Assembly: GCA_010093705.1 (NCBI GenBank)
Contig: MU006090.1
Span: forward strand, 1,763,817 to 1,827,816
DNA from: Patellaria atrata CBS 101060
Lineage: Eukaryota
Length of the DNA stretch: 64,000 nt
Direction: 5' to 3'
Below, one piece after another: positions 12,207 through 53,214 of the stretch (positions are counted from its first letter, which is position 1; every line of letters begins with the position of its first letter). The notes below the pieces were generated by a model. That model worked only from the letters and a program-made list of their open reading frames with translations. It was not told the origin of the DNA and ran no database searches. Made by a program: the position numbers and the translations under genes.

Positions 12207-12400
12207 AAAAAAAGACAAATTGCAAAACAATTAGCCCCGTAGGACTCCTTGAACCCCCAGGACGGGATTTTTGCTGCCGCTGCTCCATTGACCTGAGGTT
12301 TACCGATAAACCCGCCCGGAGGGAATCGAACCGACGACGTTTCGAGGGGGAAGGGAGATCGTAGTCAGACTGCCTGACCGCTCTGCCATTGTTAGTTGAA
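12207..12400 (-). ncRNA. Candidate Pol III-transcribed structured ncRNA with a degenerate tRNA-like head (element E1)
   Basis: On the minus strand: TATA-like CTTTATATT (12428-12420), A box TGGCAGAGCGG (12388-12378), perfect B box GGTTCGATTCC (12332-12322), 3' hairpin (12278-12214) and T7 run (12213-12207). The acceptor and T stems do not pair, so this is not a functional tRNA. Confidence 0.65.
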
Positions 12401-12598
12401 ACAGGACTTCTCCTTGGCGAATATAAAGACGAGGGGGGCGAGGGGCGGAGAGCTTAGAAGGAATATCACGTGTAGTGTTTGTAAATGTTGAAGAGACTAG
12501 TTGGGACATGGAAGGAGGGAGGACCTCTCTACTACGAATCTGGGTCACATGATATATTGATGCTATATATAATACAAAGACTGAGTAGGTAAGACATC

Positions 12599-14721
12599 TC
12601 ATAACTGCTCCAACAGGTCCCTAATCCTTCCCGCCAGCTCACTAATCACGATATCCTCCTTTACCCCTAATCTTCGACATTGCAACTCTACAATCTTCTC
12701 CTCCTTCCAGCGCCGCCCTAACAGCACAATGACCGGATACCCGACCAAATCTGCGTCGATCAACTTCCATCCCAGCTCCTTTTTCCTATCATCTAGCACC
12801 ACATCTGCCACCGTCCCTAGTAGCCCATCGTACACACTCTCCGTATCCTTATCTTTAATGTCCCTCCCACTGAACACAACAGCCTCAAATGGCGCTACAA
12901 CCCTAGGCCAATTGAGACCTTTCCCGTCCGCTAGCACAGCCGCAATGGCTCCAATGAGCCGGGAGACTCCGATGCCGTGACAGCCCATGTGGACAGGGGT
13001 GGGACCGGTTGGAGTTTCGACAACGCACTTAAGAGGGACGGAGTAGCGGGTGCCGAGGTGGAAGGTGTGGCCGACTTCGATGGCTTTGTGCACGGTGAGG
13101 GTGCCGGTAAGACAGCGAGGACAGAGGTCACCGGTGCGGATGCGGGTTAGGTCAAGGGGAGAATTGGTCGTGGGGTGGGTGGTAATGATTTGGTCGGCTG
13201 GCGACGGGCCAGAGGGGTTGAATGGTAGGACGGGGAGTAAGCGATAATCGTAAATGGCGATGCGGTCGCCGAAGGACACGTCGGTAGCGCGTTGCTGTTG
13301 CCAGGCGACCTTCTTGAATTGGGAGGCCCAGAGACCGAACGCACCGGTCTCGATTGAGGTGTCAAGTTCGGGAAGGATTTCTTTGAGGAGCCGGATGTTT
13401 AGATCTTGAGCCTTACCTAGATCTCCCTTCGAGAGAGGGTCTCTCTGAATGGTAGGGAAGAGCTCTTGATTTAATTGGTGGGGATAATGGACCTCAACTA
13501 AAGTCCTTCTATCTGTAGTAATTCCTTCCCAGATAAGCTCATTCGGACTATTAGACCCGTCCCGAACTCGCTGCTGATCCAGGCTCTTTTGTCCTTTCTC
13601 TTCGTTTGCCACATAATTGCATGAGTTGCATACACAAACATTATCTTCCCCTTTTAGGGAGGAAAAGTGATACTCATGGCTGAGCTTACCGCCCATATCT
13701 CCTGATTCAGCCTCAGCTACGAGGTAGGGGATTTTGAGTTCGTCCAAAATCGACACATATGCATTACATACGTCTCGATAGGTAGAGAGTGCTGCCTCAT
13801 GCTCGGAATCAAATGTATAAAGGTCTTTCATAAGGAATTCCTTAGCTCGCAAGAGCCCTTCTCTGGGACGCTTTTCATCTCGATACTTTCTGGCTGTTTA
13901 AAATTAGGGTCTCTAAAGGAGTAATCGGTCTGGAAAACATACATATTTGATATAAACGTAATGGTAGATCCTTGTATGAGCTTAAGATCCTTCCGACGAG
14001 GGTTGTAATCTCTTCTTCATGTGTGGGGGAGAGGAAGAAGCCAGATTCCTTTCGGTCTCTGACACGAAGGAACTATTATACTCAATATTCCATCTCTAGG
14101 ATCATTGAACAAGGCACTTACCTCTGAGTTAGCACTATACCTACCACTCTTCAGCCATAAATCCCTCGTTGTTATTGATGACAATGAAACTTTGGATGCC
14201 CCTTTCGAAGATATGAGTACTAGAACTGAACATAAAAGATTCTATTTACCAAGTCCAGTCATATGTTTATCAATCAATCTTTCTAACTTGTTTTGAACTC
14301 TTTGGCCAAGGGGAAGTAAATGAAAGACCCCAGAGTGAGCCTAGATAGTTAAGCTAATGAAAATGAACGAGGGGAAATTTCACTTCACACCTGTCGTAGA
14401 AACCCAGACCTTAGTAGAAGGGTATGGGAGTCATCTATACGAAGAAGTTAGATCCTTTTATCTTTTGAATGGGAATAGAGGATGGACCTTCAGAGCCGCT
14501 TCCAGCTGTACCCTGTGTGGGAGCCCAGAATGTGGAGAGGCGATTTCTCCCATCTATCTTATTATAATCAGAGATTATATAATGGAAATACTTCCGTTAA
14601 TAAAACTCACGTGAAGTGTTCTGACATTTTGATACTGGAAGGTTATACCGCTTTGAGATGGTTTAAGGGAACGCAAAGAAGTATTTCGTAACAGCAGCCG
14701 GAATGCAGAATGATGGGACAT
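12599..14721 (-). CDS. AIM10: Mitochondrial prolyl-tRNA synthetase (bacterial-type), multi-exon
   Basis: Basic presequence [33 protein letters not shown], motif 2 [40 protein letters not shown], motif 3 [10 protein letters not shown], and an anticodon-binding domain. Confidence 0.9.
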
Positions 14722-15010
14722 AAGGAAAGACTAGAAGAGAAAGGAGAAAACGTGTCTCAATTCATTTGATGGGAATTAGATTTTAAAATCCAGGGATGAT
14801 GAAAGATCAAGAGCATATCGAAGTAGTAGATGGTCCATGTCCTCTCCCGAGGATTTCCCGCGCGGCCTTCAATACAACGAGAATATTTTGAACTTAGTAA
14901 ATCACCATTCATCCGCCATTGAATTGTAGCTCAACGTACGTCTCCCAAAGGCTCAATTGAGGGCATTCTACTGACATGATACCTAGTGCTACAAACACTC
15001 ACAACCCACA

Positions 15011-16060
15011 ATGCCATCACCACGATTACGCTTCCAACCACTCACACTCCACCTCCCCATTTCTCCCTCACTTTCCCTATACCAATGCCGCAACGCATCC
15101 ATAGCGACAATACCCGCCCCATCCGACTCACACATCTCCCACCCCGTCTCCCCAGTCCTCCGCTACCCAGCCAACCAACCCCCCTCCCACAAACCCCCCC
15201 AATTCCGCAAATCTCAGCTCCACCGCCAATACACCTCCCTCCTACGCTCAACCCCCCTCCTCCTAATTTTCCAACACAACAACCTCAAATCCAACGAATG
15301 GATGTCCATCCGCCGCGAACTCTCCGCCGCCCTCACAACCGTCGATCAAGCCGCTCTAGCAACAGACCCCACAACCGCGGCCCTACACGCGAACAACATA
15401 AAATTGCAGATCGTGCAAACCGGCATCCTCGCCGCGGCGCTCCGCGTCGTCGAGTTCTTCGACCCATCCTCTATCCCCCAAACAACTGAAAATAAAGTAC
15501 GCACCGCGACGGATCCGGCGATCAACACGTCCCGCTCCCTACCCGACGCCCGTCCCCTCCCCGACTCTCCCGCCTTCACCCACGCCCTCTCCCGCACCGC
15601 GCACCGCCTCGCCCGCGCCTCAGGCCGCACCCATGGCCTCGAACCGCTCCTCTCAGGTCCCCTGGCCCTTCTGACCTTCCCCGCCGTATCGCCCGCGCAC
15701 CTCGCAGCCGCTCTGTCCATCCTCGCGCCCTCGCCTGCCTTTCCGGCGCCGAGGAGGAAGGCGAATCCGGCATACCACGAACCGGCTGTGCAGCAGGGGG
15801 TGCAGAAGCTGATGTTGCTGGGCGCCCGGGTGGAGGGACAGGCGTTCGATGGGGAGGAGGTGAGATGGGTGGGCGGGATTGAGGGCGGGATTGGGGGACT
15901 TAGGGTGAGACTGGTGCATATGTTGCAGGGGGTTGGGGGTGGGGTTACCAATGTGTTGGAGGGGGCGGGACGGAGTTTGTATTTTGCTGTTGAGGGGAGA
16001 CGGGGGATGTTGGAGGAGGAGGAGAAGAAGGAGAAGGGTGGGGAGGAGAAAGTGGGATAG
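15011..16060 (+). CDS. MRPL11: Mitochondrial large-subunit ribosomal protein uL10m
   Basis: RKSQLHRQYTSLLRSTPLLLIFQHNNLKSNEW...LLGARVEG; mitochondrial presequence-like N-terminus; intronless. Confidence 0.8.
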   Translation: MPSPRLRFQPLTLHLPISPSLSLYQCRNASIATIPAPSDSHISHPVSPVLRYPANQPPSHKPPQFRKSQLHRQYTSLLRSTPLLLIFQHNNLKSNEWMSIRRELSAALTTVDQAALATDPTTAALHANNIKLQIVQTGILAAALRVVEFFDPSSIPQTTENKVRTATDPAINTSRSLPDARPLPDSPAFTHALSRTAHRLARASGRTHGLEPLLSGPLALLTFPAVSPAHLAAALSILAPSPAFPAPRRKANPAYHEPAVQQGVQKLMLLGARVEGQAFDGEEVRWVGGIEGGIGGLRVRLVHMLQGVGGGVTNVLEGAGRSLYFAVEGRRGMLEEEEKKEKGGEEKVG

Positions 16061-16810
16061 AATGGAGGTGGAGGTGAAGGGTGGGCTTGTGTTGTAGGAA
16101 TAAAATGGAGGTGTATTATGTTGTCTACCTAAGTATAAACTATCATCTATCAGGCATATGTATCTTTCTGCATCAACCCCCTTCTCACGAATGGATATAG
16201 TATACTATCCCACAAACGGATCCCATACTCCTATCCCACGAACGTAATAGCGATCAGTCATATCAGAAGAACTGAAGAACTCGTTGAGTTAGGTCTACAA
16301 GGTAGAAAGAGACATCCCTCCCTTCTCACGCACTTTCAACCTCGAAGACTCTCCAATCTCGAAACCAGACGTCACACCATCTGCTCCCGTCTGCTCCACC
16401 GGTCGTAGAACCGCATCTACCATACGAGTGGTACGAGCACGGCAGACAGGAGCCGCATCCGCAGCGCGATACAACCAACACCAGCCTCGAACGCGATCGT
16501 ACCTGCTCGCCAAGCGGAGTACGGTACAGTACCAAGCCTCATCCACTCACTCTCGAAACCGTCAATTTATCTTCAGAGTTGGGAGTTTAACCCAAGGAAA
16601 TACCCAGTGCCTCTATTAATGTGGTCTTCTAAATATAAGGTACCACTTAAGAGCAGTCGATGCGCGCGTATCCGATCACGGAAACCTACATATCGAGTCT
16701 CAGTCTCAGTCTCCATCACGCAGATATACAGATCAAGCATCTCGCAGTTCTCGTGCTACGGCCCTCGGTTCCGGGACTTGGGGTCAGGTCTGTAAACGGG
16801 TACTAGCGCG

Positions 16811-16836
16811 GTGTGTGTGTGTGCGTGTGTGTGTGT
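16811..16836. repeat. (GT)n microsatellite, interrupted
   Basis: gtgtgtgtgtgtgcgtgtgtgtgtgt. Confidence 0.9.
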
Positions 16837-17063
16837 TTTGGGAGGTTGGATGTGGATGTGGTGCATGTGAGGTAAGGTAGAGATGAAGTCTTCCGGATGG
16901 TGGAGATGGCGTAGGTGTCTTTACTCACGATTGGGGTTACGGATAGTGGTGTAAGGTATTTCTGCTTATATTATAGGAGCTGATCTTGTGCTTCTACAGC
17001 ACCAGTACCTGAACGTGGTTACATAGGGTAGGTGGTACACGATGCGGTGTTTTTACAGGTCCA

Positions 17064-17066
<3 letters not shown>

Positions 17067-17108
<42 letters not shown>
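17067..17108. repeat. Poly-G tract, 42 nt
   Basis: Uninterrupted G42 counted directly. Confidence 0.95.
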
Positions 17109-17111
<3 letters not shown>

Positions 17112-18912
17112 TTAAATTAAGGTAAGGGTGTATGAGGTCGTGAAGTTGTTCGGATGTATTGTATTGCATCCCAGCCGTACTACGGTAAGCAAGCCGAGAG
17201 ACACAATGATGAAGGAGCCGAGGAATCCGAGGCGTACTTGAAGTGCCGAATGTGCTTACTGTTTCGCTTGTTGACACTGAGCGTTACAGTAGATGCTGCG
17301 CCTGCAGAAGATCTCGATGGGAACTTTTGGATAATTTCTAAAGTGGTTATATATGGGGCGAAATGTTGTGTTACAGAGATCCCGCCACTTCAATATCTAA
17401 ACGGTTAGAAAGATTGTGCTCAACTCCTTTTATTTTTATGATGAACGAACAAGGGAAAGTTGGGATTGGAACATGCTTTCTGTTGGAGAACGAGGGTACC
17501 TTTTTGAAATATTCGCCGCGTGGAGATTGGTAAGGTGACGGAGCAGAGTTGTTTTAAGATTTGCGGAGGAAGGTCTCTGTTGGCTATAACGGGCAGGTAC
17601 GTTGGACGGAGGACAGGCCTTGGGGGTACATCGGTTCAGTCCATGTCCCGGACTGCTGGATCTCGGGTAGGTAGACGTGTACCTGCTGTGCCAGTTGTGG
17701 TAGCCGCTGACGGACCGTTATTGTATACATCTTGTCGTGACATCGGGAGATGAGGTCAGTCAGATGTACATTGCTTTGATCGGCACAATTTCCTGCCAGG
17801 CTTGTTCCTACCAGTATCAACAATGTCTATTTTCGAAAAGTTTGGATCATGCACAAAGTTCCACGGTATTCGAATGGTGGTGAAGGGTAAAACCTAGCAC
17901 GCCTGGACAGCTGAATGTCGCTGACGATTGATTCTGACTATGTGCCACTTAAGCAACGAATATTTCGGATTGTGTACGAATGTGTCTATCAACATCATTG
18001 CGGCTGCAACCTCGTGATGAACTGTTTGTGAGAGCAAGGGAACATGATGCTTCCACGCTGTGTATATCCGTTGTGCATCAGGGAGAACCGTGAAATATTG
18101 CGACTGCAGGTAATCGATGTGGATGATTTGCTGTTGCCCCCTGTTTGACAATCTGAAGGGTTGTAGGATAACTGAATGCCAAGAGGAAAGAAACTGCTTT
18201 TGGGTTCAACTTGCTTGCTCAATATATCAATCTTTCAGGCTGAGGCAGTGTAAACCTTGGAATTCAGGGTTCAGAAGACGTTTCGACAGAGTTTGAAAGA
18301 GACAGAAACCTACATGGGCATGATCCAGCATCGTTTTATCGAGATTCGTTCGATCCCAAGATAGACATAGATCCATATTAAGGTATATCTCAGGGTAATG
18401 GATATTAATGTATCGAAGCTACCTATTCTTCCTCTTACCTCGGGACACGTGAGGATATCTTCCCCTTGCGATAGAATAATAATGAAAAGAGACATGATAA
18501 TGATATCTGAGGAGCAGCATGTGTGTCGAATGGTGAGAGACAACTGGGTAGTTTTATTTCACATCGATCCCCGCTATTAAAACCCACATGTCAGCCATCT
18601 GTCCCTCTCTCTCTGGATGATCAGAGGTTCACAGGCCTCATGTTTCTCCATGATTTTCGCAAATGTCAGATTCTCAAGAAGGTTAGTGCTCGAAAGCTCA
18701 GGCCGCTTAAGCAAGGGCACTGCGTATTCTTTTCACTAGCGCTCATTCGGGCGGGCTAAAGTAATGCTTGTCGTCACCCACACTACGGCCAGCGTCCGGC
18801 AGCAGTTGACAGCCACAACGGGATAGTTGCTGATAAGGAAGTTGGCATACGGCTGTGACGGAGTTACTTTTGTAAATCTCTTTAACTCCAACTTCATTTT
18901 ATTGCCTCAAGA

Positions 18913-18930
18913 TCTCTCTCTCTCTCTCTC
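18913..18930. repeat. (TC)9 microsatellite
   Basis: tctctctctctctctctc. Confidence 0.9.
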
Positions 18931-19471
18931 ATCCTTGCTTCTGAACTTCTGATTATCCAGTACTGGTAGATCGAAACTTGTTATGAAGGGAGAGATAGAG
19001 ATGAATAGAAACAGTACAATACATGGAGTAGAGACATTCAGGAAGCTGCTGGAAGGCTGTAAACTGGGCGTTCGCCGAGTTCCTTCAGGTCACTTTCGGC
19101 TGTGTGCTTTTTTGCATGTACTCCGTATGTACCGTGCCGTATGTTCGTGATGTTTTAGGTTGGAAAAGGGGCGTGACGAGGGGGGAGTCTGGTACCACAG
19201 CATCGGATATCGTATTTCGTTATTTTGAATGCTAGCAAAAAGCACGACGGCAATAATCATGTCTTAACGCAACCTTGCGATCTCCTTAACTCTCTGTCCA
19301 TGTTGCTGCCCATGATGGCGATATCTCATCACCAGCATGTGCTGGGACTACCTAGGCTGATGTTGCCCTTGTTCGTTTGCCTGAACTTAGGAAACTTAGG
19401 AGAGGTCAATCATCCCGCGAATCTGGTTCGCCGTAGACCGGCATCGCATGAAAGTGCCTAGAACTAAGATT

Positions 19472-19818
19472 TTATCTTGGGAAACGCGGAGTAAGATTGG
19501 TGCAGTTTGATAGCCTTAGTCCCTTTGAGCTCCCTTCTAGAGTCCAGTCAAGTCCTCTGATCTCGCCCAGCTATCCACAAGAATAATCGAAAGATATCCC
19601 ATAATCCCATAATTCCATAATCCCATAATCCCATAATCCCACTCCTAGCCCACCCAAAGAGTGGCTTGCCGCGAGCAGTCTAACACGTACCAAACCCCAT
19701 GTTATCTAGTATCTTCAGCAGTTGAAGTCCCCGGATGAGCGAGGCTTGCTTGTGCAGAGGGCTTACTTTAAATTATTCGAACCTTGCCGAACAGACCCTA
19801 GTAATTCTTTATCTATCG
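19472..19818. promoter_or_regulatory. Cluster of HGATAR (AreA/Nit2-type) sites upstream of the ammonium permease
   Basis: TTATCT 19472, TGATAG 19508, TTATCT 19702, TTATCT 19809, CTATCG 19813; about 480-820 bp upstream of the ATG. Confidence 0.6.
19596..19640. repeat. 8-bp tandem repeat (ATAATCCC), about 5.5 copies
   Basis: atccc ataatccc ataattcc ataatccc ataatccc ataatccc. Confidence 0.9.
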
Positions 19819-20293
19819 CCTCAACGAGAATCCATTCTGGCGACATTTATACCAACTAGTCTCCCCACACGCGCATCGTATCGTTGGACGTCCTAACTTT
19901 CTATTCACTGTATTTTGCTATACAGCATATTTAACTCACCGGACAGTCATAAGGAAAGGCGAGATTTAATTCTCACCTGACTCTTCACCACGAGGCGGAA
20001 CTGAAGACCTGCCTTGCATTGATTGTCTGTTCTTGGATACTCAATAATCGGGCCCCCAGCCGCGTGAGCTCTAGGTCTTTTTCACGGACGGCCATCTCCA
20101 AAACTACAGCCTTGTACCTCACGAGCCTCGGACCTTCACTCTTCACACACTCTTTTTGTCCATAATTTTCGCTCGCGCGGATTTTTAATGACACATTCTT
20201 TCACTGTGTCATTCGCCTTCCTTTGGCTAAACTCATCTTAAACTTCCATACCTACCGTACTTTCTTATACCGATCATAATAATCTGAATCGCC

Positions 20294-22054
20294 ATGGCCG
20301 ACAGTCAGTCTTTCGTGCCACTTGAAACGTTCGGCAATAACACCGATCCGAACGGAGGCGACTCGCTCAACCATAATCTCAATGTTTTCTACGAGGTAAG
20401 ATCTCTGGAATCTCGTTTGTCTGTATCTTTGTACTAATTGATAGCAAAAAGAGCGGTGATATTGCCTGGATGATTACTGCAACTGCACTTGTGCTTCTCA
20501 TGATCCCTGGTGTCGGGTATGTTTCGTTCGACCTTGTCAATTTCTAGTAGCAAACCTAATGTATTCCTTTCACAGCTTCTTCTATTCTGGTTTGGCTCGT
20601 AGAAAGTCCGCTCTTTCCCTAATCTGGCTTTCTGTCATGGCCACGGCGGTTGTTAGCTTCCAGTGGTTCTTCTGGGGATATTCCTTGACCTTCTCCCACC
20701 ACGCTGGCAAGTACATCGGTAATCTGGAGAACATCGGTTTCAGGAATGTACTTGCTGCACCCTCTGTTGGAAGTTCTAAGATCCCGGATCTTCTATTTGC
20801 TGTCTACCAGGGAATGTTCGCTTGCATCACGTAGGTTGAATCATCAGATTGAGGTGATCGCACTGACATCATTTCGTAGGGTTGCCCTCGCTGTAGGTGC
20901 GGTGGCCGAACGAGGCAAGATGCTCCCATGCATTATCTTCATGTTCATCTGGACTACAATTGTTTACGACCCAATTGCTTGTTGGACATGGAATCCCAAT
21001 GGTTGGTCATTCGTCATGGGAGGTCTTGATTATGCTGGAGGAACCCCTGTCCATATAGCCTCTGGAACAGCCGCTTTAGCATATTCCTACATGCTCGGAA
21101 AGCGTCGTGGTCATGGTACTCAGGAGTTGAACTATCGCCCTCATAACGTCACTCATATTGTCATCGGCACTGTCTTCCTCTGGGTCGGTTGGTTCGGCTT
21201 CAATGCTGGTTCGGGCCTCAGCGCCAACCTTCGCGCCGTCATGGCTGCCTTTGTCACGAATCTCGCGGCCTCCATGGGTGGTGTAACCTGGTGTCTAGTG
21301 GATTATCGCCTCGAGCGCAAGTGGTCGACCGTTGGCTTCTGCTCCGGTGTTATTGCAGGTCTCGTTGCTATCACTCCTGGATCCGGATATGTCCCCCCCT
21401 GGGCTGCAGTTATTTATGGTGCTGTTGGGGGTGCTGCGTGCAATTACGCTACAAAGCTCAAATACTTCCTTCGCGCTGACGATGCTCTTGATATCTTCGC
21501 TGTCCATGCTGTTGGCGGGTTTGTCGGAAACCTTCTGACAGCATTTTTCGCTGCGTGAGTCAGCCACACTCTGTACTGAATACCTTCCACTAATGGTGAT
21601 TTAGCGATTATATTGCCCATCTCGATGGAACGACTGTCATCGCTGGTGGATGGTTGAACCACAACTGGATCCAGCTTGGTTATCAGTTGGCAGACTCTGT
21701 TGCCGGTGGAACATACTCTTTCGTTGGAACCTGCATCATTCTCGCTGGCATCGACTTCGTAGGACGCTTCGTCCCTGCTCTCCGTCTCCGTGCGTCTGAG
21801 GAAGAAGAGGTACTTGGTATCGACGACGTCGAAATCGGTGAATTTGCTGTAAGTCTACAACTATTTTCACACTTCGAGGATGGAATACTAATACCATGTA
21901 GTACGATTATGTCGAGCTTACCCGCGAGATCAAGATTCCTGAGGACGATGCTCTTTCTCACCAAGACTCCGAAGAGCATGAACTCCAGCACATGCAGACC
22001 CATGAGAAGAACCATGACTCAATTGGTTCACACAATCCCCTTACCGGAATCTAG
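20294..22054 (+). CDS. mepA: Ammonium transporter, Amt/Mep family (Mep2/MepA-like, twin-His type), 6 exons
   Basis: GDIAW...LMIPG, FFYSGLARRKSAL, DYAGGTPVHIASG (first His retained), WFGFNAGS, FAVHAVGG, and C-terminal GIDDVEIGEFA|YDYVEL. Confidence 0.93.
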
Positions 22055-22945
22055 CTTCGTGACACTTAGTTAGCCTCTTCTTACATATACCCCATTCTCA
22101 TCGTCTTCGCTACTCATAGCAGCGTTGCGTGAGTATTCACTTGTCGGGATACCCGTTTGGATTCTGTTTAGGAAAGCACGGCGTAACCGATATATTGGCT
22201 TCAATCCATGGTCCACTCGGACAATTTCCTTGCTCTTTTCTCTGTGTTTAGCCTCGATACCTCTTGCTGTTTGGCATATATGGGATTCAGGACCTTTCTA
22301 GTTAAGTGTGGGGGGCTCAATTGCAAGACTTGGAAGGTGACTGGAGTTAGGAAAGATAGGACAATCAAAAATAATAATCACATTAGAAAGAGTGTCTCCC
22401 GTATTGATATATGGAAGGTGATAGATGAAGCATATAATGTCTCACTTGCTGATAGAACCGCTTTTAGGATATGTGATACCTGGAATGTCACAGAGATAAG
22501 CTAGCACGAATGCGGAAAACAGCTTTGAAGCTTTCAATCAGTTTTGCTCGTAACTTGAGAACGTCACAGCGCATGGAGAAACTGATGTGGATTGTAATGT
22601 GTACTTATGGTAGCCCATGAATATTTCTAACTTTACAGCATAGGTTTCAAAACAATCATGGATTACACTCTTGTATGAGGAAATCCCGCAGAACGCACTT
22701 TGCCGAGCTTATGGAGAAAAAAGTAGGAAGATAACTGAGGTGGTGAGCAACCTAAGGCGTGAGATACGGAAGTAACTTCCCTGACGTTAGCGTGACATTA
22801 GCGTGGCTTACATAACTAGCTTGTCATCGGAAATGCACGGACCTAAACGCACCTTCCAACCGAACCTTTCCCCAATCCCGATAACTTTTAAAAGCTCAAT
22901 CGCAATCAACAATTTACAACCTGTCGCTCCGAAAACATCTTTGCC

Positions 22946-24590
22946 ATGGAATCCGAAATACCACATCGAGGCGTGGCGCCTCCAAACGATGGCATGTCCG
23001 CCGCTCGCGTGGTTTTCCCCCATTCGCCTGAAGATTTCGAGAACGACGCGCGTGTGTCCTTCTCCAAGCTCGAGAACAAATGGCTTCTTGAAGATGATGA
23101 TGGATCCGAGTGGGAGTACAATGAAGCCTTGAAGAAATGGATCCCTCTGGTACGCATACACACCCCTTCATGAAGGCCGGCCCGAACTTGTACTATAGTA
23201 CCTATCTTGTATATGGAGCGGAAATCTAATGCTACAATTGTTGTTGGGTGGGATACAGTTGGACGAGGAATTACTGGAGAAACAAAGACAAGCGTACGCT
23301 GTTGCTGGCGTCGACGAACATGAGCCCGCCCAACCGGCGAAGAAGCGAAAGCAGGAAAATAGCGAGGTAACGGCCCTGCGAATATGGCGATTTTCGATGG
23401 TAAATAATGACCTGTCTTGACAATTTTAGGACAACAAGAGTCAGAAGAAGACGCGCAAAGATGAAGAGGCGAAAACAGAGCGCAAGAATACAGCAGTCTA
23501 CGTCACATCTCTTCCACTCAATGTAACTGTCGACGAGGTCAAATCGGTGTTCTCGCGCTGTGGGGTCATAGCCGAAACTATCGAGACTGGCGAGCCTCGT
23601 ATCAAGCTGTACACCGATGAAAAGGGAAATTTCAAGGGCGACGCCCTTATTGTATTCTTCCGTCCTGAATCAGTCGATCTCGCTATACAAATGCTGGACG
23701 ACTCGGATTTCAGGATTGGTCAGAGCGGGCCTGAAGGTTCCATGAGGGTCAAAGTCGCAGAGAAGAGCTACAAGAAGCAGCAGGACGGACCTACAACTGG
23801 TCCAAAGTCCAATATGCGCGATAAGAAGAAGATCATCAGAAAGACGCAGCAGATGAACAAGTACGTCGACTCCAGTATATATCTAATTGACTTGCTAACT
23901 ATAGCACAGCAAACTGCTGGACTGGTCTGACGATGAACCTTCTATGGAACCAACCACCTCGAAATTTGATAAGCTCGTGTACCTCAAACATATGTTCACC
24001 TTGAAAGAGCTCAAGGTATGCACTTGCTCTCCTATATTCAACCAGGTAGCATTAAGGCACTAACGTACAACTCCAGGAGGATCCTACGGCCATGGACGAA
24101 ATCGAGGAAGACATACGTGACGAGTGTTCCAAGCTGGGTCAAGTTTCGAGAGTCACGCTATTCGACAAAGAAGAGAGTGGTGTTGTTAGCGTCAAATTCG
24201 CTGACCACACAGCAGCGAAGGCATGCGTACAGGTAAGCTACAAATATCCTCCCTACTTTTGTGTGATGTCCCCTGTATGATATTCCTGGCACATTGGACT
24301 ACGACCCAAAAGGTCTACGCCAAGCGGAAAGTGGCCTAGGAGTGCCAAACGATGATGGACGAGATTTTTACAAACGTAATATCTTGCTCCAACTCACTGA
24401 CTTTTAGTTAATGAACGGTCGACACTTTGCAGGCCAACAAGTTGTTGCCTTCATCGCCAGTGGTGGCGAGAAATTTCAAAAGTCAAGAAAGAGTAAGGTG
24501 GGAGATGAGGAAGAGGACGAGGAAGCTCGTCGTTTGGATGAATTTGGAAAGTGGATTGAGAAAGCCGGTGAGGATGATGCTGACAATTGA
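22946..24590 (+). CDS. CUS2: U2 snRNP-associated splicing factor Cus2/Tat-SF1 (RRM + UHM), 6 exons
   Basis: NTAVYVTSLP...RIKLYTDEKGNFKGDALIVFFRPESVDLAIQMLD; LKHMFTLKEL, EIEEDIRDECSKLG, MNGRHFAG. Confidence 0.9.
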
Positions 24591-25236
24591 TGGATGCTTT
24601 GGATGTCATGTATCTCAGCATCCTCCTTTGATTATACTCGAAGTACTACCCTCATACCTTTTGTGTATTTGGATAGTGCATTGGACCTTTATAGGATATA
24701 GCTACTTGTACGAATTCGAATAAGACTGCTTTCAATTTGCTCCTAAGTGAAGTAACTGTATAGCTAAGTAGACTCTTTGATAGTGGGCAGAGATGATACA
24801 CTTAAGTGTATAGCATAATTTACCAATAGGGAAACGGTCGGACAACAGTGGCTTTTGTATGGGAAAGTACTATCAGTAGTCATCCTGTTCACTGAAGCAG
24901 AATAAGAGTGCCGCTGTTCTACGTTTTTTAAGAATCAAGCTTGCTCGTATCCCCGGGAAAGTGGCTTGCCTGAATACTGTAATAATGGCTTCTCATCCCA
25001 TCAACATTTTGTGACCACGTTCGCACAGCCACAACTAAAAGGTTTCATCAGTAAAATCTAGGGCATTCGAGCCACGGAATTTGAAAGTGATCGACAATTT
25101 TGACAGATCCTACGGCGTCGGTTACGGTTCTTGTTCCGTCACATTGACAAGGGTCGTAAACTGGGAAAGCTTTAAAGTTCACGCGGCGACTCTCGTCGAG
25201 CTTCAGACTTCTTCTCACGACCCCTCCATTTTCGCG

Positions 25237-28200
25237 ATGAACGGAGTTCAATCGCGTACATCGGATCCACGGTCACCGTCGCCGAGAGGCGTCCGATTTT
25301 CTGATGGGACTGAAGGTCAGAAGGTCAAAGGAACAATGGAGGCGGCTCACATCAACACGCACGACTTTTACGACTCGACATCGTCTTCGGGATCCAACGC
25401 CGATAACCCTCCCAACGAACGTACTCATTCCGAAGATGATATAGGCAATGGTCAATTTCAATACACATCGACAGTCGTCACTACGCCACTGGATGATATC
25501 GGCCCTCTCGCAAGCTCAGGAAGCTATATGTGGAACTCTACAGGACAGTTGAGAGCAAGAGGTGGAAGCGCAGGCTCAAATGGAGCAGAAGGTATTCCGC
25601 CAGCAATACAGACAAATGGGATGATATCTTCCCAAGCGCCACGGCCCATGGCCATAAGGACGCCTTCGAACACCTATGCTCCATCTGCCGCCCGTCGGCC
25701 AACCCAATTTTCCCTTAATAATACATCTGCTCGAAATCGGTCTACAACAAAACTTGCGCGTCGTAATCCTGCGGCTGAATACAGGGCGCAGGAGAAGACA
25801 TATATACAGCGTATACGGCAAGACGTCGATCCTGAAGATTCGTTCTCAGATTTACGAACCCCGAGTCTAGCATACAGCACGGATTCTGATATCGACGAGG
25901 AGTCCCCCTCTACTGCCGAATACTTTGACGACGACCACTATGATCACGAGACATTATTGTATAATGGTTACGATGAACTACAACCATCCATCGAAGAACT
26001 TAAGATACCTGCAAATAGGGAGAGACTCGAGTGGCATTCAATGCTGGCCAGTGTATTGAACGGCGATGTTGTAAAACAAGAGAAGAAAAGATTAATCGGT
26101 GGTACCGAACAGCAGGGTGAAAATACGTTGAGAGCTGAGATATGGCTTGGTGTAAGAGCAAGAGTTTGTGGAAGACCACTGCATGCGCAGAGAAGGCTAG
26201 TAGAGGACGGTCGATCTCGGATAAAGACTGTTATTGAGACGATTATAGCCTTTGAGGTCAAGGGTGAAGCAGAAGTTGGTCAGACAGCTGCACAGCAGGT
26301 TGAGGATATCGTACACAAGATCGAAAAGTGCGAGAGCCTGTATCCTACCAGACAAAGTCTTGAAACTGCACATCCCCGAACCGCTTCTTCCGCGTACAAG
26401 GAAAGTTGCGAGGCCGTCTTCGCCTGGCATAATACTACCCAGCTTATCAATACAGAAATCACCATTTTGAGAAAATGGGTAGGAAACGATGAGCTCGATT
26501 TCACTAGAACCAGGGATCAAACATCGAACGATAATCATAATCTCAGGGATGACTCGTCATTTATCGATAGACTTCTCAAAGAGGACGGCTTGAAGTCTCT
26601 GCAAGGGGAACGAAGCTTACTTCGAGGGTTGAATGTTGTCATATGCAAGGCAAAAGCAACACTGATGGCTAATGCTCAAGCTTTTGCGGACAGACATCTG
26701 CCGCCTTACATCGAGGAGCTTCTTACCTTGATTAATTTCCCATCACGATTAGTCCAAGAAATCATCCGCATGAGATTGTCTTTCGCAAAGAAGATGAAAG
26801 ACCCTGCTCAGCAAGGTGTTATCATGGCGGAGCAGATGATTACTCAGTTTCAGATATTGCTGAATTTGGCTGTTCGGATCAAAGAGTCCTACACCGTCAT
26901 CGCTGCGCCCGAGCCTGGATGGGACCCTCCGCCGTGTATAGAGGAAAATTTTGACAAAGTAGTGCTGGATGCGTTAAGGTTCTACTTCAAGATGTTAAAT
27001 TGGAAGTTAGCTGCCAACAAGAATACTTTCAAGGAGGCGGAAATCCTGGAACAAGAATGGGGCTTCTCGAACACTTTAGGGAGACATATAGATGGGGGTG
27101 ATACTGAAGTTGCTGAGCAGTTTAGGTAAGGTCGTTGTGCATTAACTGGAATCGCGTGCTGACTTCATATAGCTCGTTAACATCGAAATCTTTAGCGCGT
27201 CTAACAACACATTTCGAAAAGGAACTGCAAAGAAGACCAGGCGAAGTGGCAGGTCCAGACATGGATAGACGTTACAAGCAGATATTGGATTCTGTCCGTG
27301 TCCGACAAAGAAAGCTCTTCCGCTTTTCCCGAATCCTTACCCAACAATTCGAAAACTGCATGGAATACAACATCAATATCAAGCACGAACTCCTAGAGGA
27401 TCTTTCCCACTCGCTGAGCGTGAGTGGACATATCCTCGTTGAGACCGTCGAAGGCGAGAGCGGTAGTGGTCTCTACATTTTTGCCTCGCCGTCACTACGA
27501 GACCGACCCAAAGAAGTACAATTCCTCCTAACATCTTTCCTTCGGCCAGAGGATGGTCTTGAGGATCCAACTAGTCTTTATATTCTCATCCTCAAACCAG
27601 AAATTCCAATGTTTTGGGCTGGGGAGAAGATGACGGTGCCAGTGCGACAACCGAATCTCGATATCAAGACAGGTCGTCTGCGTCTTGTCGCCGACGGTTC
27701 GTTACAGCGATTAATTAATGCTAGACTCTACTTCACCCAGACTACAGGTGCTGATCTGATAGTGCTAATCGAGCAGCGAGCGAATCTTCCCAGAGTCAAC
27801 CAGGAACTGCAGAAAATCAAGAAGACAACCTACAAGTTATCAAATACCATTATGGACAGCGTTGAAATCATCAGGAAGCAAACCACAGGCCTTGATTGTC
27901 AAGAACTCATTCAGACGTGTTTCGCATTCGCCACTGAGTTCGGGAAACGATCAGATTTCTTCATGGACTTCAACCGACGAGCGATGAATAATATGAAGTT
28001 AACTAGATTGGCTTTGGATTGGGTGAGCTTCATTTGTGACGATTGTATTGCTTCTGACCGCAAAACGTTTCGGTGGGCTGTCATCGCTCTCGAGTTCGCT
28101 ATGAGGATGACGGTGGGAACAAGTATCCTATCAATTAGCGAACAAGAGTATGCCAAGCTACGTTTAAAGGTCGCAGGCTGCATGTCACTATTAATCTCCC

Positions 28201-29432
28201 ATTTCGATATCATGGGTGCAAGGTCGACTATGGCAGCCCAAGCCGAAAAACAGCGAATGGACGATATGATGGGCAAACTTCGGTTGGACGTCAGCCGTCT
28301 AAAGGATGATGAAGAGTCAGCAAAGATGGTACAAGAGCAGTGGCTCGAGCAACTGCAAGAGTTAGATGAGCAGAGGAAGCAGAAAGAGGCGGAACGTCAA
28401 GCGCTAGGTCGTGTTCTTGAAGACTCGAACGAAGCTGACCGTGCTCTTTCATATCTCTCGGCCTCCTCAACCAACGTTACTCTACGCTGGCAGCAAGGTC
28501 AATTCGTTGGTGGCGGTACATTTGGTTCCGTCTATGCTGCAATCAATCTCGATACAGGTCACCTCATGGCCGTCAAGGAAATTCGACTCCAAGACCCTCA
28601 AATGATACCAACCATAGTATCACAAATTCGCGATGAAATGGGTGTCCTTCAAGTCCTCGACCACCCTAACATCGTGCAATACTACGGTATCGAACCGCAC
28701 AGAGACAAAGTCTACATCTTCATGGAATACTGCAGCGGCGGCTCGCTCGCCGGCCTCCTCGAGCACGGCCGCATCGAAGACGAAACCGTCATCATGGTCT
28801 ACGCCCTCCAAATGCTGGAAGGCCTCGCCTACCTCCACGAATCCCACGTCGTCCACCGCGACGTCAAACCAGAGAACATCCTCCTCGACCACAACGGCGT
28901 CATCAAATTCGTCGACTTCGGCGCCGCAAAGGTCATCGCGAGACAAGGCCGCACCGTCGCCGCCGGCGAGCAGACCAGAGGCCGCGAGCGCAGCATGACC
29001 GGCACACCCATGTACATGTCTCCCGAAGTGATCAAGGGCCACACGTCCTCGGGCCGCCTCGGCGCAGTCGACATCTGGTCCCTCGGCTGCGTCATCCTCG
29101 AAATGGCAACAGGAAGGCGTCCCTGGGCGTCCTTGGATAACGAGTGGGCCATCATGTACAATATCGCCCAAGGCAACCCGCCGCAGCTCCCCACGAGAGA
29201 CCAGCTCAGCGAGGCCGGCATCGTCTTTTTGAAAAAGTGCTTCGAGAGAGATCCGGGGAAGAGGGCAAGCGCGGCGGAGTTGCTCCAGGATGAATGGATC
29301 ATGACGCTGAGGAATCAGTTGGCGCTTGACCCGGGCACGCCGCAGACGCCGGCGAGCGAGGTCACAGATAGTATGAGTGTGGGTAGTGCGCAGAGCAGTA
29401 GGCAGAATTCGAGCGTGTTTGAGAGGAGTTAG
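25237..29432 (+). CDS. SSK2: HOG-pathway MAP kinase kinase kinase (Ssk2/SskB/Wis4), intron 27126-27172
   Basis: RERLEWHSMLASVLNGDVV N-terminal domain; kinase motifs WQQGQFVGGGTFGSVY, MAVKEI, HRDVKPEN, DFG, GTPMYMSPE. First ATG at 25237. Confidence 0.95.
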
Positions 29433-36131: not shown

Positions 36132-36343
36132 GGGGAATACAATCATGCATATATTGTCAGGCGTTATCGAGAAATTTGCTTCTTTTTGGCATTTTCGTCG
36201 TTATGAAGGCTTGGGTTTGAGATACCAGTTCAACATGAATGTCATGATTGTCCTTCCAATAGCTTTCTCGCAGTACTATTCTTATCGAATATACATATAT
36301 ATATATTCAAACCACCACTCTACGATAGGTTTGTCCCCAAACA

Positions 36344-37169: not shown

Positions 37170-37589
37170 GGCGAGGGTTTGGAGTGGGGTGGAGGATGGT
37201 GTGGATTCTTGGGATGGGTATGTAGACAATCTAGGGGCTCATTCTATACGAGGAGAGAGATCAATTGGAAGGTGTAATAGGAGAACTGGGTGGGTATCGA
37301 CGAGAAATGTATATATGCAACTTAAGACGAGCGAGCGGGATGATGTGCGGGAGGGAGCTTTTTCTTAGTTGTGGCTGATGAGAGCGGAACGGAGGGGTCA
37401 AGCCACCCGCGAAAAATTAACCCGCAACATCAACCACGAGGAAAAAATGGAATCTGGAGTATCTCGATTCCCGCTACATATCTATTCCTACCGAAACCAC
37501 CACCAATTCCTTTGCACAATATCTTATTCAAAACTACAATCAACCCCTTTCCCAGCCCTCTTCCATCCCACGCCCAACCCTCACAAACA

Positions 37590-38853: not shown

Positions 38854-40103
38854 CGACTCTTCTTCCGCTTGAGATTAGTGCCCGCGATTAAGAGCACATC
38901 AGTCTCCAAGCATGTTATCGATGCTCATTTTGAGCTTCTTCGAGCAAAGTCCTCCATATTCTAGACCCTTGTGCGAGCTTGTAGGTTCCAGTGGACTATA
39001 TTACAGCTATCGGTAGATAGCTGGCGAGGGACAACGATGGGAAACCTCGAGGGAGTAAGGGGAGGTGATAGATGCAGAACGATTCCCAGACGCTCCGAAG
39101 ATAGGACTGTATCAAGCCCATATATCGTACTAAACCCGTAGCACTACCTGGACTCCTCTCTGCATGCTGTTTTATTCGCTACAGTGGCAGTAAAACAGAG
39201 AGATTCAGGAAGTCAGTCGCGGAGGGGGAGTAGTTCCTCTAGCATAGAACAATCAAGCACAGTAATCAGTTCAAGGTAGTTAAATTAAACATATTCAATC
39301 AAGTCACATCACGACTCGCACAAGGAAACCAGAGTTTTGGTGCAAATTGCTTATTCTTTGGTGAGTATCTAGACCACACTAACATATCGACTAACTAAAC
39401 CGTACTGTAAATCAAATCCTGGGGATTGTGTTATGAGAAAATTAATCAATCGAGCCGATGATCCTGAGTGCGTGCGCTGATCCTGTCCGTGATAAAATCC
39501 AAATATACTCGTACAAAGAGGTGAAGCCAAAATCACTTTTCCTGAACGTCCCCTGTTTTTCTGCCGATTTCGGGATTTTTTTTTAGAGTGGGTGAAAGGA
39601 AAGTGGTGGAAAGTAGTTGGTGGAAAAGGAAATATTATTGATACAGCGTAAGACATGCCATTGCCTCCAAACGCCAGTTTTTATGCATGTTTGTCGTAAC
39701 GGCATGGCCAATCGTGATCGTGAGTCCGTAAGATGAAAGTACTAAGGAAAGCACGCGGATAGGCGACTAACTCGAGAGGACGTAGCGTAGCGTAGTCGAC
39801 TCTGATTGAACTCGCAAGATGATCGTGCCGGAGAAAGACATGGAGAATCGTGAACAATCGTGAGCCATAGGGCGTCGTAAACAGTCATGATGGCGGCTGA
39901 GGGGTTCTGAATGATGCTAAAGATCTCATGCCGTCGATTAAAGACATATGGGAACTGATAATCGAGAGAAGTACGTCGCGAAGTGAGAACGTTGCGAACA
40001 GTGGTGGTGAATGAACAAGACTGTCGAGGAGGTCATCCGATACAGAGATATTATCGATGCAGGTGATGGACAAAGTCGAACGGTGGAGGAACTGATGGAC
40101 AGC

Positions 40104-43100: not shown

Positions 43101-43471
43101 TAAGGCGTATAAGTGAAGGCGCAAATGTGTGGTTAACAGTGAGAACAGCAAACGTAAATAAACAAAAGTGTGCAGATAATAGAGTCGCGTCTATCTCACC
43201 GCCTAGGCAATGAAGCGGGTGAAAAGGGGATCGCTGGGTAGAATGCATGTGATATTAAAGTAGTAGTTCAATAAAGACAGATACAAACGCAATGCTTACC
43301 TTCAAGAGCTTCCTTGTTAACAGACACATCCTTGTTCAATATGTCTTGCGGTCCACTGTTTTCATCCTTCTTCAACTTGAGAAGCTGGGTAGGAGTATAC
43401 TTGCGGAATTTCTTTCCCATATCGGATCGCAGCCCTTCGAGACTTTGTGCTGCCCGTATTTGAGACGTCAT
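40104..43471 (-). CDS. Large intrinsically disordered protein (~1000 aa) with eIF4E-binding-like and PAM2-like motifs and a coiled coil
   Basis: Exon 43471-43300 spliced (GTAAGC...CTGAC...CAG, intron 42968-43299) in frame to the long exon 42967-40104. Contains RKYTPTQLLKLK, RVTAGGLVVP and SNLNPTSPTFKP. A further upstream exon (donor at 43549) is possible. Confidence 0.8.
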
Positions 43472-49269: not shown

Positions 49270-51285
49270 ATGTCGGAACAGGTGGACTGGTATGACATTG
49301 TCATTGTTGGAGCAGGTCCTGTTGGACTGACATTATCCACTTGTCTCACACGCTGGGGGTACAAAATCAAGCACATTGACAATCGAGCCGAACCTACGCC
49401 CACTGGTCGCGCCGACGGGATACAACCACGCTCGCTAGACTTATTGCGGAATATGGGTCTCAAACGGAAGATTATGGCTCATGAACCTGCTAAGGTGTAC
49501 GAGGTTGCCTTTTGGGATCCAAGCGCAGAAGGCATTGCTCGTTCCGGAACATGGGCTAGTTGTCCTAAGTTTATCGATGCGAGGTATCCGTTCACTACAT
49601 TACTCCACCAAGGTCTCATAGAACGAATTTTCATCGAGGATATTCAAAAGCATGGCGGTAATATCCACCGACCTTGGACGATTACAGGATTTTGCAACGA
49701 TGGGAAGGATAAGACATACCCGGTTGAAGTGAGTCTCAAGCATGTCGAGAGGGGTGAGATTGAGAAAGTCCGAACCAAATACCTTTTCAGTGGAGAAGGT
49801 GCTAGGAGCTTTGTTCGAGAGAAGCTAGGGATCAAGATTTCTCATAAAGATCCGATTTCGCATGTGTGGGGTGTTATGGATGGTGTTGTCAGGACGGATT
49901 TCCCAGATATCAAAGTATGCATCTAGCCGAATTTCACAATTTTACCGAGACTAACGCGTAAGAAAGATGAAGTGCACGATACACTCCGATTCGGGTTCGA
50001 TTATGGTCATTCCACGAGAGAATAACATGGTTCGATTGTATATACAAATCGCATCTTCAACCGACAAAGATTGGAATCCCCGAAAGACTGCTACAGCTGA
50101 GGAAGTTCAGCGCTACGCTGAAAAGATCATGAAACCCTACTTTATTGACTGGGATCACGTTGAGTGGTACTCTGTGTACCCAATCGGTCAGGGAATCGCT
50201 GAAAAGTATACATTGGACGAACGCATTTTCCTGGGCGGTGATGTCTGTCATACACATAGTGTTCGTATACTGTAATCCTTGTACTATATCATTATTAACA
50301 TAATCTGCAGCCAAAAGCTGGTCAAGGTATGAACACTGCCTTTTTGGATGCTGTAAACTTGGCGTGGAAGATCCATTTGGTCGAGTCAGGCTTTGCGTCT
50401 CGTTCAGTTCTTTCTACCTACGAGTCAGAGAGAAGAAAAGTTGCGGCGAACCTCCTTGATTTCGACGCGAAGTACGCAGCACTCTTTTCTCAGCGGCAGC
50501 CGTCAGCCCGCGAAGTTGGTCTTGCGAATAAAGCTTCAGCTACGGATTCTGATGTCACGGATCACCATAAAGACAACGAATTCATCAAGGCGTTCAAAGA
50601 TTCTTGCGAGTTTACCTCGGGCTATGGCGTTGCCTACAATCCGAATCTCTTCAACTGGTCCCCAGCGCATCGTTCCAAGTCGCAGCTCTTCCTTTCTTAC
50701 CCGGAACATACAACCTTACGCACTGGCCGCATTCTCATTCCAGCAACAGTGACTCGAGTTGTTGATGCTAACGTCGTTCATCTCGAACAAGAGATACCCT
50801 TAAACGGTTCTTTTCGGCTCTATATCTTTACAGGAGACCTAGCTGAAAACTCTAAAGCACTCAAAGACTTCTCTGATCACCTTACGAAGAAGTCATCGTT
50901 CTATTCATCCTTCTTACGCGAAGATATTGACCAAGTCTCATACCATGAGCGCCATAATCCACACTCCCGTTTCTTTACACTTGCAACCGTAATCGCCGCC
51001 AGGCGTGACTCCATCGATATTTCATCTATGCTTCCACCTGTCTTAGCTCGATATAGGAATCATGTTTACGCCGATGATGTATGGGATCAGCGTGTTCCGA
51101 ATTCAAACGCAGCAGCACATGCAAAGATGGGTCTAACCGAAGGGAGCGGAGCTGTAATTGTTGTCAGACCTGATGCGTACGTGGGCTGCATCGTGCGGTT
51201 ATCCAAAGGTACGGGAACTGCCTTGGATGAATACTTCAATGCGTTCACGAGCAAGGAGGTCGGCAGTCACAGGTCACAATTGTGA
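49270..51285 (+). CDS. FAD-dependent phenol 2-monooxygenase family protein, 3 exons
   Basis: [61 protein letters not shown], and thioredoxin-like C-terminus VVRPDAYVG. Confidence 0.93.
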
Positions 51286-51836
51286 TACTTCAGAACGGCG
51301 CGAATACCCCAAAGATCATGATTTACGAATTCTGGAATCACAGCTTGGATGAAGAGAGAGAATACAATCTAATTTATTTCTATTTAGTATAAATCAAATA
51401 GAAAAAAAGCCTCATTAATTCACACCTTTCAGTCTCCTATATCTATCTTAGGACGGATGTTTACTATCAAGGAGATTGTTTTGAAGCTAATATATCACCA
51501 CATTTCCTGCTAGCATTAAATCAAGTACAACCATATCCTCGGGTGTTTCTCCTGAATTCAGGACAAGTAGTGGTACTTGTGGCCTCACACAGGGGAATTA
51601 TTAACTCTTGTACGGAGGTATCCTCGAAGCTATGACCAAGATTCAGGTTTGCCTCGGCTCCTTGACAACCTTCCACCACATCTCACTCTGTCCCCGCAGG
51701 ATGCCGTTGGTATGGAACAACGTAATATTGCATGTTTCAATTTCTATTCATTCAGGATTTGTAGAACCATCCTATACTCTAATTCTACCATTTTGATACC
51801 CATCAACTCTGTGCTCAGTAGAACTAGAACCTAGTA

Positions 51837-52937
51837 ATGCCTGATTCAGGGAGAACCAACTCCTTACCGTTAAGTGAACAACTATCAAAACCTCTTGAAG
51901 ATCCAGGCACGTTTGAGAATATACCCAAGTTAAGACATATAGCTGAAATTTCCCCTGGCCAGTTAGTCCGTTCACCTCTCTGTCTGTGGTCGTATGTGGC
52001 TAATCATGATACAGACGTGTTAAGGATAAAGTCATTATAATCACAGGTATTCACATACTCAAGGAAGGCTTATATTTACGAACTGATCTAACATGTCCAG
52101 GGGCCAATAGTCCTAAAGGCATTGGCCGTGCAACCGCTCATCAGTATGCAAACAACGGCGCCAAAGCAGTCTTCATCTGTGATTACAGCGATGAGTATCT
52201 CGAGGTCCATAAGCGGGAGCTGAATTCGCTATATCCCAACGTTGACATCCATCCACGGAAGTTCGATGCTGCAGATGAACCATCCGTAAAGCAAGTAGTA
52301 GACGAAGCATTAAAGTTGTACGGCCGGTTAGATATCTTCTTTGCCAATGCAGGCATAGCGACTGGCCAGACTATCAACAATGTATCTGCCGAGGAGTTCA
52401 TGAATACTATGAGAGTCAACGCTTTAAGGTGTATTCATTATCCGCAATATCACCCTTTAAACCTCAACTAATCTCCTTAGCGTGTTCCTCGCAACAAAGC
52501 ATGCCTCCAAGGCCATGCTCGTTACAAACTCCAGTAAACCCTACCCGTCCGGATCCATCATCGGAACCGCCTCCGTCGCTGGCATCCGCTCCAACGCCGG
52601 CAGCACCGACTACAGCGCCTCTAAAGCAGCTGTCGTCTCCATCGTGCAAACCGCCGCTTTCCAACTCTCAGGCACTGGTATCCGCTGTAACGCCATCTGT
52701 CCGGGCGTAATCGAGACCGGTATGACGGCTCTGATGTACGATGCAGCCCGAAAGAGAGGCACTGAGAGGAAGATTGGCCAGCTGAACCCCCTAAGGAGGG
52801 GTGCCCAGCCGGATGAGGTCGCGAGAGTCGCGCTGTTTCTAGGGAGCGATGAGGCGAGTTATGTCAATGGTCAGGCGTGGGCTATTTGCGGAGGTTTGAG
52901 TGCGGGTCATCCGTTCGTGCCTGGGAAGTTGGCATAG
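51837..52937 (+). CDS. Short-chain dehydrogenase/reductase (classical SDR), 4 exons
   Basis: KVIIITG|ANSPKGIG, FFANAG, YSASK catalytic motif, RCNAICPG, LFLGSDEASYVNG. Confidence 0.92.
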
Positions 52938-53003
52938 TGAGTTAAATCAAGACGTTGCATTGGCCACGTGGTCGTAGTAGCCCCTGAAATAAAGAAGAGT
53001 AAC

Positions 53004-53214
53004 AAAAAAATGATTTAACGCTCAAAAGGAAAAGAAATAAGGATATAAATAACACTAAACAAAGGCAAAACAGTTCCCACCGGCTCCCCATAGAACGGCG
53101 TGGTCCTTCTGCTTGAGGGCATTTTCCACTCCTTCTAAGGCTCACACACAGGACCGGTTGGTTTTGGCCTAATCGGTGTGGTGGGGGTTTTCCACCACTA
53201 AGCCACAGGTCCTG
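53004..53214 (-). ncRNA. Candidate Pol III-like structured ncRNA (element E2)
   Basis: On the minus strand: TATA-like TTATATGTAAA (~53249-53239), perfect A box TGGCTTAGTGG (53205-53195), long 5' hairpin CAGGACC...GGTCCTG (53214-53149), 3' hairpin (53112-53065) and T7 (53010-53004). No clear B box. Confidence 0.45.

Follow-up and report, generated by a model that had tools for sequence, protein, structure and literature searches.

The 64,000-nt stretch of Patellaria atrata CBS 101060 analysed here (contig MU006090.1 of assembly GCA_010093705.1, positions 1,763,817 to 1,827,816 of the forward strand; hereafter the window, numbered from its first letter) carries at 12217–12401 of the minus strand a copy, about 185 nt long, of a dispersed repeat; we call it E1. 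The E1 family is present in tens of copies at different sites of the genome, and the copy in the window is probably a short interspersed nuclear element (SINE)-like sequence with a tRNA-type RNA polymerase III (Pol III) promoter of its own. It is most likely a repeat of a known kind rather than a new RNA system. A sequence-only reading of the same DNA had joined E1 to a second minus-strand element, E2 (53057–53215), in a possible family of Pol III RNAs held together by a covarying 3′ hairpin. This “shared 3′ hairpin” is no conserved structure, and the kinship between E1 and E2 extends at most to a terminal 18-mer and a T-rich tail.

Copy number was assessed with contigs from two public runs of P. 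atrata (X1 and X2), placed on 11900–12700 at a likeness of at least 80%; the two runs are one sample, probably DNA and probably the sample behind the assembly. The flanks of E1 lie at a flat single-copy depth of 312 (X1) and 442 (X2), whereas 58 contig pieces in X1 and 56 in X2 are placed only on approximately 12217–12401, and the depth summed across 12224–12412 runs from 1,100 to 28,000, up to about 90 times that of the flank. E1 is therefore one copy of a dispersed family. The listed pieces span 12217–12324, 12223–12383, 12260–12386, 12268–12388 and 12274–12401 and come from contigs of 0.6–28 kb; listed copies sit in different contigs (28,243, 7,774, 14,652, 6,505 and 3,184 nt), each at single-copy depth, the one in the 7,774-nt contig being internal (1734–1900). 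By likeness to E1, the X1 pieces fall into classes of 26 (at least 99%), 8 (95–99%), 7 (90–95%) and 17 (below 90%). Within the window no further copy was found by blastn, where the best non-self matches of E1 reach at most 24 bits. The boundaries of the unit follow from loose contig ends, which diverge at 12217 and at 12386–12390. Past 12386–12390 the sequence differs from contig to contig; past 12217 the other copies run into T-rich DNA, with a loose-end consensus that reads T7GT12 in the orientation of the element; every copy examined has such a T-rich end. At 12170–12196, where no other copy at least 80% alike is found, the depth is back to 312 (X1).

The part common to most copies is the centre of the unit, 12251–12331 on the minus strand, with depths of 10,700–28,000 in X1 and 11,000–29,000 in X2 and a peak at 12278–12304. 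From the 3′ end inwards, the summed X1 depth is 3,100 at 12224–12250, 10,700 at 12251–12277, 28,000 at 12278–12304, 12,000 at 12305–12331 and approximately 5,000 at 12332–12385; relative to the flank, this core lies at about 35–90 times, the tRNA-like head at about 16 times and the 3′ end at about 10 times. Such an excess may reflect a conserved core with swapped ends or an artefact of contig break points. The family had been proposed on the strength of its 3′ hairpin (12214–12278, the 3′ third of the repeat unit), and it is the centre, not this segment, that is most widely shared.

Variation among the copies is unevenly spread along the unit, and the promoter boxes are better preserved than what separates them. 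Substitutions (15 of the 26 listed) and indels (8 of 12) concentrate in the stretch between the A and B boxes (12334–12357), and the A box has no listed variant at all. In the B box, most contigs that vary do so at the first N position (12325) or by insertions behind 12324 or 12325, but a few contigs are altered at the fixed positions 12322, 12327 and 12332 as well. This pattern fits a promoter kept by selection, or of recent origin, around a freely drifting tRNA-derived remnant.

The promoter motifs of E1 are arranged as in a tRNA-type gene. The A box (TGGCAGAGCGG, 12378–12388, minus strand) is a motif match, and the B box (GGTTCGATTCC, 12322–12332, minus strand), which the sequence-only reading does not mention, matches GGTTCGANNCC exactly; the distance from one to the other is 56 nt, a tRNA-like spacing. 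A TATA-like site (TTTATATT, 12420–12427, minus strand) lies about 35 nt upstream of the A box and outside the repeated unit, and a T7 run (12207–12213, minus strand) is the likely Pol III terminator. In the window, E1 is the sole site that combines an A box with a B box. Of 300 block shuffles of the window, which served as background for all composite motifs, 3 contain this pair, and none contains the full composite of E1, in which a TATA-like site and a T5 run are added. Exact B boxes also exist within long open reading frames (ORFs), at 15635–15645 (GGTTCGAGGCC) and 28686–28696 (GGTTCGATACC) of the minus strand; neither has an A box at tRNA-like spacing, and both are probably due to chance.

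Read in this way, TFIIIC would bind the A and B boxes of E1 and TFIIIB would sit on any TATA-like sequence that happens to lie upstream, here 12427–12420; Pol III would start near 12400 and stop at the T7 run (12213–12207), and new copies would arise through reverse transcription of the RNA by the enzyme of a long interspersed nuclear element (LINE). Excerpts of PMC5063351, the Aspergillus fumigatus SINE paper, describe fungal tRNA-related SINEs as elements of 140–493 bp that carry A and B boxes and a tRNA-unrelated region lying upstream of a tract of oligothymidine, and give approximately 100–160 copies for MgSINE and Foxy; flanking target-site duplications are reported in the same excerpts. 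As far as these excerpts go, E1 resembles the fungal SINE2 elements (AfuSINE2 of A. fumigatus, MgSINE and Foxy) in its short length, its 5′ A and B boxes, its tRNA-unrelated body before an oligo-T tract and the dispersal of its copies in gene-rich DNA. This is a likeness by description only, and E1 differs from them in showing no target-site duplication and in having a head that cannot be assigned to a tRNA. An undescribed system, as had been suggested, is unlikely given that the anatomy of E1 is that of a fungal tRNA-related SINE, although E1 does hold its place as the best candidate of the window.

CORE-SINE, V-SINE and Deu-SINE are animal SINE superfamilies defined by a conserved central domain, and E1 is like them in combining a tRNA-type promoter head, a better-kept centre and a variable 3′ end. 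It is unlike them in that the conservation of its core is deduced from summed contig depth, which also reflects breaks made by the assembler. With tRNA genes and pseudogenes E1 shares A and B boxes 56 nt apart, but its terminator lies approximately 110 nt past the B box and not about 20. E2, in turn, is like a tRNA gene in its closed “acceptor” stem and its D-arm-like A box; neither element shows a cloverleaf by ARAGORN or Rfam.

Searches for known RNA families across the 64-kb window gave no hit to Rfam at the gathering threshold, and no curated covariance model of signal recognition particle (SRP) RNA, U6, RNase P/MRP, 5S, tRNA or small nucleolar RNA matched in it. On E1 and E2 themselves, at E-values up to 10, Rfam returned only chance-level matches to unrelated families. 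ARAGORN at default thresholds, also with introns allowed, reported no tRNA at either element. With the threshold lowered to 70% it proposed implausible tRNAs with introns of 106–174 nt, at both elements and on the opposite strand as well, which we rejected as noise. A term search of PMC8216456, a report of 17 conserved structural RNAs in fungi, showed no mention of Pol III, tRNA-like RNAs or Dothideomycetes.

E2 is probably a separate, decayed element of tRNA origin: an old SINE from a different family, or what is left of a tRNA. Its 5′ domain is tRNA-like and consists of a closed hairpin of 62 nt that begins at 53212; about 90 nt follow. It is a single locus in the window, where no second copy was found. 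Its first 20 nt resemble the acceptor strand and D arm of a tRNA and include the only strict A box of the window (TGGCTTAGTGG, 53195–53205, minus strand), a motif expected by our arithmetic about once by chance in 128 kb (both strands). A TATA-like site (TTATATGTAAA, 53239–53249, minus strand) lies upstream; a motif scan of the window placed no B box at E2, and no convincing target-site duplication was seen there. Directly after the hairpin only T4 and TTTGTTT follow, and the first T7 run (53004–53010, minus strand) comes 55 nt beyond it, leaving E2 without an adjacent strong terminator. Thus, where TATA, A box and T7 had been attributed to both elements, the TATA-like site and the A box are indeed present in both but the adjacent T7 is a property of E1. 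Likewise, a dispersed Pol III family with promoter elements and oligo-T is what we find for E1, but membership of E2 is unsupported, as it has no similarity to the core, no B box and scores at background level.

The motifs quoted for the two hairpins are all present in the DNA. In E1 (minus strand) these are GCAAAA at 12274–12269 and TTTTGC at 12227–12222, the stem CCCGT/ACGGG, the apical GGTTC-AAG-GAGTC and the loop side GCTAATTG, followed by AATTTGTC and the T7 run. In E2 (53065–53112, minus strand) they are GCAGAA at 53112–53107 and TTTTGC at 53070–53065, the stem CCAC/GTGG, the apical GTTCT-ATGG-GGAGC and the loop side GAACTG, followed by CTTTGTTT. What these letters do not support is the structure drawn from them. 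Against 200 dinucleotide shuffles the E1 hairpin reaches a z-score of −1.65, with 9 of the 200 as good, and the E2 hairpin −1.36, with 18 as good. Folded as proposed, E1 has −6.6 kcal/mol where the best fold reaches −18.7, and all 16 proposed pairs have probabilities of 0.000–0.001 in the 189-nt RNA; for E2 the figures are −13.7 against −17.4 kcal/mol, and the CCAC/GTGG stem has pair probabilities of 0.001–0.013. The covariation seen between CCCGT/ACGGG and CCAC/GTGG concerns two sequences only and stems that are not formed in the folding ensemble.

The covariance-model check that had been suggested was carried out on this window in a stricter, leave-one-out design, with one model built from each hairpin in its proposed structure. 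With the E1 model, the E2 hairpin comes sixth of eight hits (10.3 bits, E 4.7), and four unrelated sites score higher, at 11.0–13.1 bits. With the E2 model, the E1 hairpin comes third of 19 (13.1 bits, E 0.37), next to an unrelated site of practically equal score (13.2 bits); these reciprocal matches are at background, and neither model found additional copies of the hairpin in the window. Plain alignment places the two hairpins no closer: their alignment is matched or beaten by 117 of 7022 and 106 of 6316 background windows (1.7%), and that of the whole units by 461 of 2374 (19%). Among the E1 copies, three variants break the apical stem (G→A at 12247, a deletion at 12244 and U→G in the loose-end consensus); both candidate 3′ stems are affected, and no compensating change was found among the listed copies. 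On these tests of stability, pair probabilities, leave-one-out models and plain alignment, a shared covarying hairpin is unsupported.

A narrower similarity exists at the very end of the two units. Their last 18 nt follow CGGnGnnAAyTGTTTTGC and are identical at 15 of 18 positions between E1 (CGGGGCTAATTGTTTTGC, 12222–12239, minus strand) and E2 (53065–53082). When the last 30 nt are compared, the score is reached by 32 and 40 of 18075 random 30-mers and, among 91 sites lying ahead of a T5 run, by 0 and 1. Softer scoring yields a collinear 3′ alignment of 51 columns, 38 of them identical, whose score of 21 was attained in 0 of 1000 shuffles and 0 of 3152 background windows. However, T-rich DNA beyond the repeat unit makes up half of this stretch, and against the E1 3′ region, where the E2 site scores 20, an intergenic T-rich site at 58997 (minus strand) that is unrelated scores 19; for these reasons the downstream half of the alignment is read as a common composition of T-rich tails or terminators. 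The 18-mer was chosen after seeing the data and stays a weak lead at the level of sequence. A shared tail of this type is what two SINE families served by the same reverse transcriptase could have.

Two further sites of the window are of note. At 58960–59060 (minus strand) an A16 run (59056–59041) is followed about 40 nt later by TTTTTTATTTTTATTTGCTCTTTCTC, a T-rich block much like the DNA just downstream of E1, which explains part of the tail similarity between E1 and E2. At 58840–58860 (plus strand), just past a choline kinase ORF, GGAGATTCGATCC is one base off a B box and lies approximately 190 nt upstream of a T16 run; this site could be another tRNA-derived relic.

Several points weigh against reading E1 as a SINE-like element. 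No tRNA is recognisable in its 5′ head, either by ARAGORN or by the Rfam tRNA model, which returns nothing at E up to 10. At E1 the search for target-site duplications turned up only 6-mers, away from the boundaries at 12401 and 12207–12217, although a short duplication could be masked by the T-rich 3′ flank. Pfam searches of 25 ORFs detected neither a LINE nor a reverse transcriptase in the window. Because the duplication is missing, the head is unassignable to a tRNA and no LINE lies in the window, retroposition is an inferred step, and the contigs would look no different for a multi-copy gene family. The family size, roughly 30–90 copies, is a rough figure: it comes from the summed depth of contigs, which the assembler breaks within repeats, and both runs are of one sample. 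Finally, the 51-column similarity to E2 is more than a strict SINE reading predicts.

In an alternative that we consider unlikely, the two elements are kin: both would be Pol III elements, with 5′ parts that differ and one 3′ module in common (18-mer, closing stem and T-rich tail), bound by one protein, for instance a LINE reverse transcriptase or La. The terminal identity is found directly ahead of the T-rich tail in E1 and E2 alike, and is rare among random 30-mers and among sites before T5 runs; the 51-column alignment is collinear and surpasses all shuffles and windows compared, and the best non-self blastn match of E2 in the window is E1, at 32.6 bits against 24.0 for the next. A common module would also fit the origin of SINE 3′ parts, which according to the abstract of PMC7245038 usually derive from the partner LINE. 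On the other hand, the leave-one-out models score the partner hairpin no higher than unrelated sites (E 4.7 and 0.37), its stems are not populated, the whole units are matched in alignment by 19% of background windows, and the comparison was picked post hoc with half of its columns outside the unit. The 3′ end of the E1 family (about 10 times the flank) is, moreover, common to fewer copies at 80% likeness than the core (about 90 times).

A second alternative, improbable in our judgement, holds that the E1 family consists of functional multi-copy Pol III RNA genes duplicated as DNA, like the dispersed 5S genes of filamentous fungi, with the core as the functional part of the RNA. The copies examined do end in a T run, as a terminator would, and not in an A-rich tail; there is no target-site duplication, the centre is best kept, and the full-length RNA (189 nt) folds with its 5′ and 3′ ends paired. 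Yet this full-length fold is no better than that of shuffled sequences (z −0.62, with 52 of 200 equally stable) and matches no Rfam family, and the copies differ by up to 20% with many indels, including the uncompensated variants in both 3′ stems. Nor was a relative found outside the P. atrata genome in contig collections or with protein queries: a 22-mer of the E1 core had 0 matches in genome-contig and viral-contig collections, and read-through ORFs of E1 (112 aa) and E2 (130 aa) used as protein queries gave 23 and 17 word-sharing candidates, respectively, none of which aligned at E up to 10.

It is also conceivable, if distinctly improbable, that neither element is transcribed, the promoter motifs being relics or chance and E1 simply repeated DNA. 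A single strict A box such as that of E2 is expected about once per window, and the E2-type composite (TATA-like site, strict A box and T5 run) arose in 5 of 300 shuffles. For E1 the same reasoning meets its full composite, absent from all 300 shuffles, and the distribution of variants, with an A box free of them, a B box varying mostly at an N position and a stretch between the boxes that is free to vary.

Most improbable of all is that the E1 family are multi-copy Pol III RNA genes mimicking the loops of SRP helix 8, with E2 as a distant paralogue that has an SRP-Alu-like 5′ end and a shared 3′ protein-binding module; E1 lacks the middle helix and the GNAR tetraloop of helix 8 of SRP RNA (7SL) and, at 185 nt, is too short. 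If true, this reading would make the family a fungal analogue of 7SL-derived small RNAs. The 5′ end of E2, UGUGG followed by the A box, resembles UGUNR, a motif carried by the SRP RNA Alu domain according to an excerpt of PMC4605306. We pursued kinship with SRP as a candidate on account of a likeness of the E1 core to the helix 8 loop motifs and of the E2 5′ end to the yeast-type Alu domain, and it went unconfirmed: the SRP families of Rfam gave no match at E up to 10 on 12100–12500, 52950–53350 or 12205–12310. A pattern expressing this likeness was found at 25 loci in metagenome contigs, all of which look like unrelated, apparently bacterial coding DNA; 20 of the 25 were scanned with Rfam, with 0 hits.

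The surroundings of both elements are ordinary gene-dense DNA of Pezizomycotina. Pfam domains on stop-to-stop ORFs of the window include RXT2-like, class II aminoacyl-tRNA synthetase, TRAPPC11/Gryzun, MEKK-type kinase, ammonium transporter, CLC channel, short-chain dehydrogenase, choline kinase and fungal transcription factor. As had been noted, both elements lie on the minus strand between convergent genes, which the ORF ends confirm: E1 between the RXT2-like ORF (end 12016, plus strand) and the class II aminoacyl-tRNA synthetase ORF (end 12599, minus strand), and E2 between the short-chain dehydrogenase (end 52937, plus strand) and the CLC channel (end 54096, minus strand). E1 starts about 200 nt 3′ of the stop codon of the synthetase (12599), on the same strand, and may lie inside or just past the 3′ untranslated region of that gene. 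Elsewhere in the window, a TRAPPC11-like gene (5934–9607, minus strand) has its Foie-gras and Gryzun domains on adjacent ORFs (7958–9607 and 5934–7721, respectively), with an intron presumably between them. Among named relatives, the Gryzun ORF is closest to one from a Pleosporales species, at 43% identity, and the best match overall reaches 45%. Since its relatives are at most 45% identical, the lineage of P. atrata is poorly sampled.

If the link through the terminal 18-mer is real, it would point to the site recognised by the reverse transcriptase that mobilises these elements. For annotation, the value of recognising E1 as a repeat is immediate: a unit located approximately 200 nt past a tRNA synthetase gene would otherwise be mistaken for a novel RNA gene, and it should be masked. 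The E1 repeat is, in addition, a marker family for a little-sampled fungal lineage, with a Pol III promoter that, judged from its motifs, looks live.

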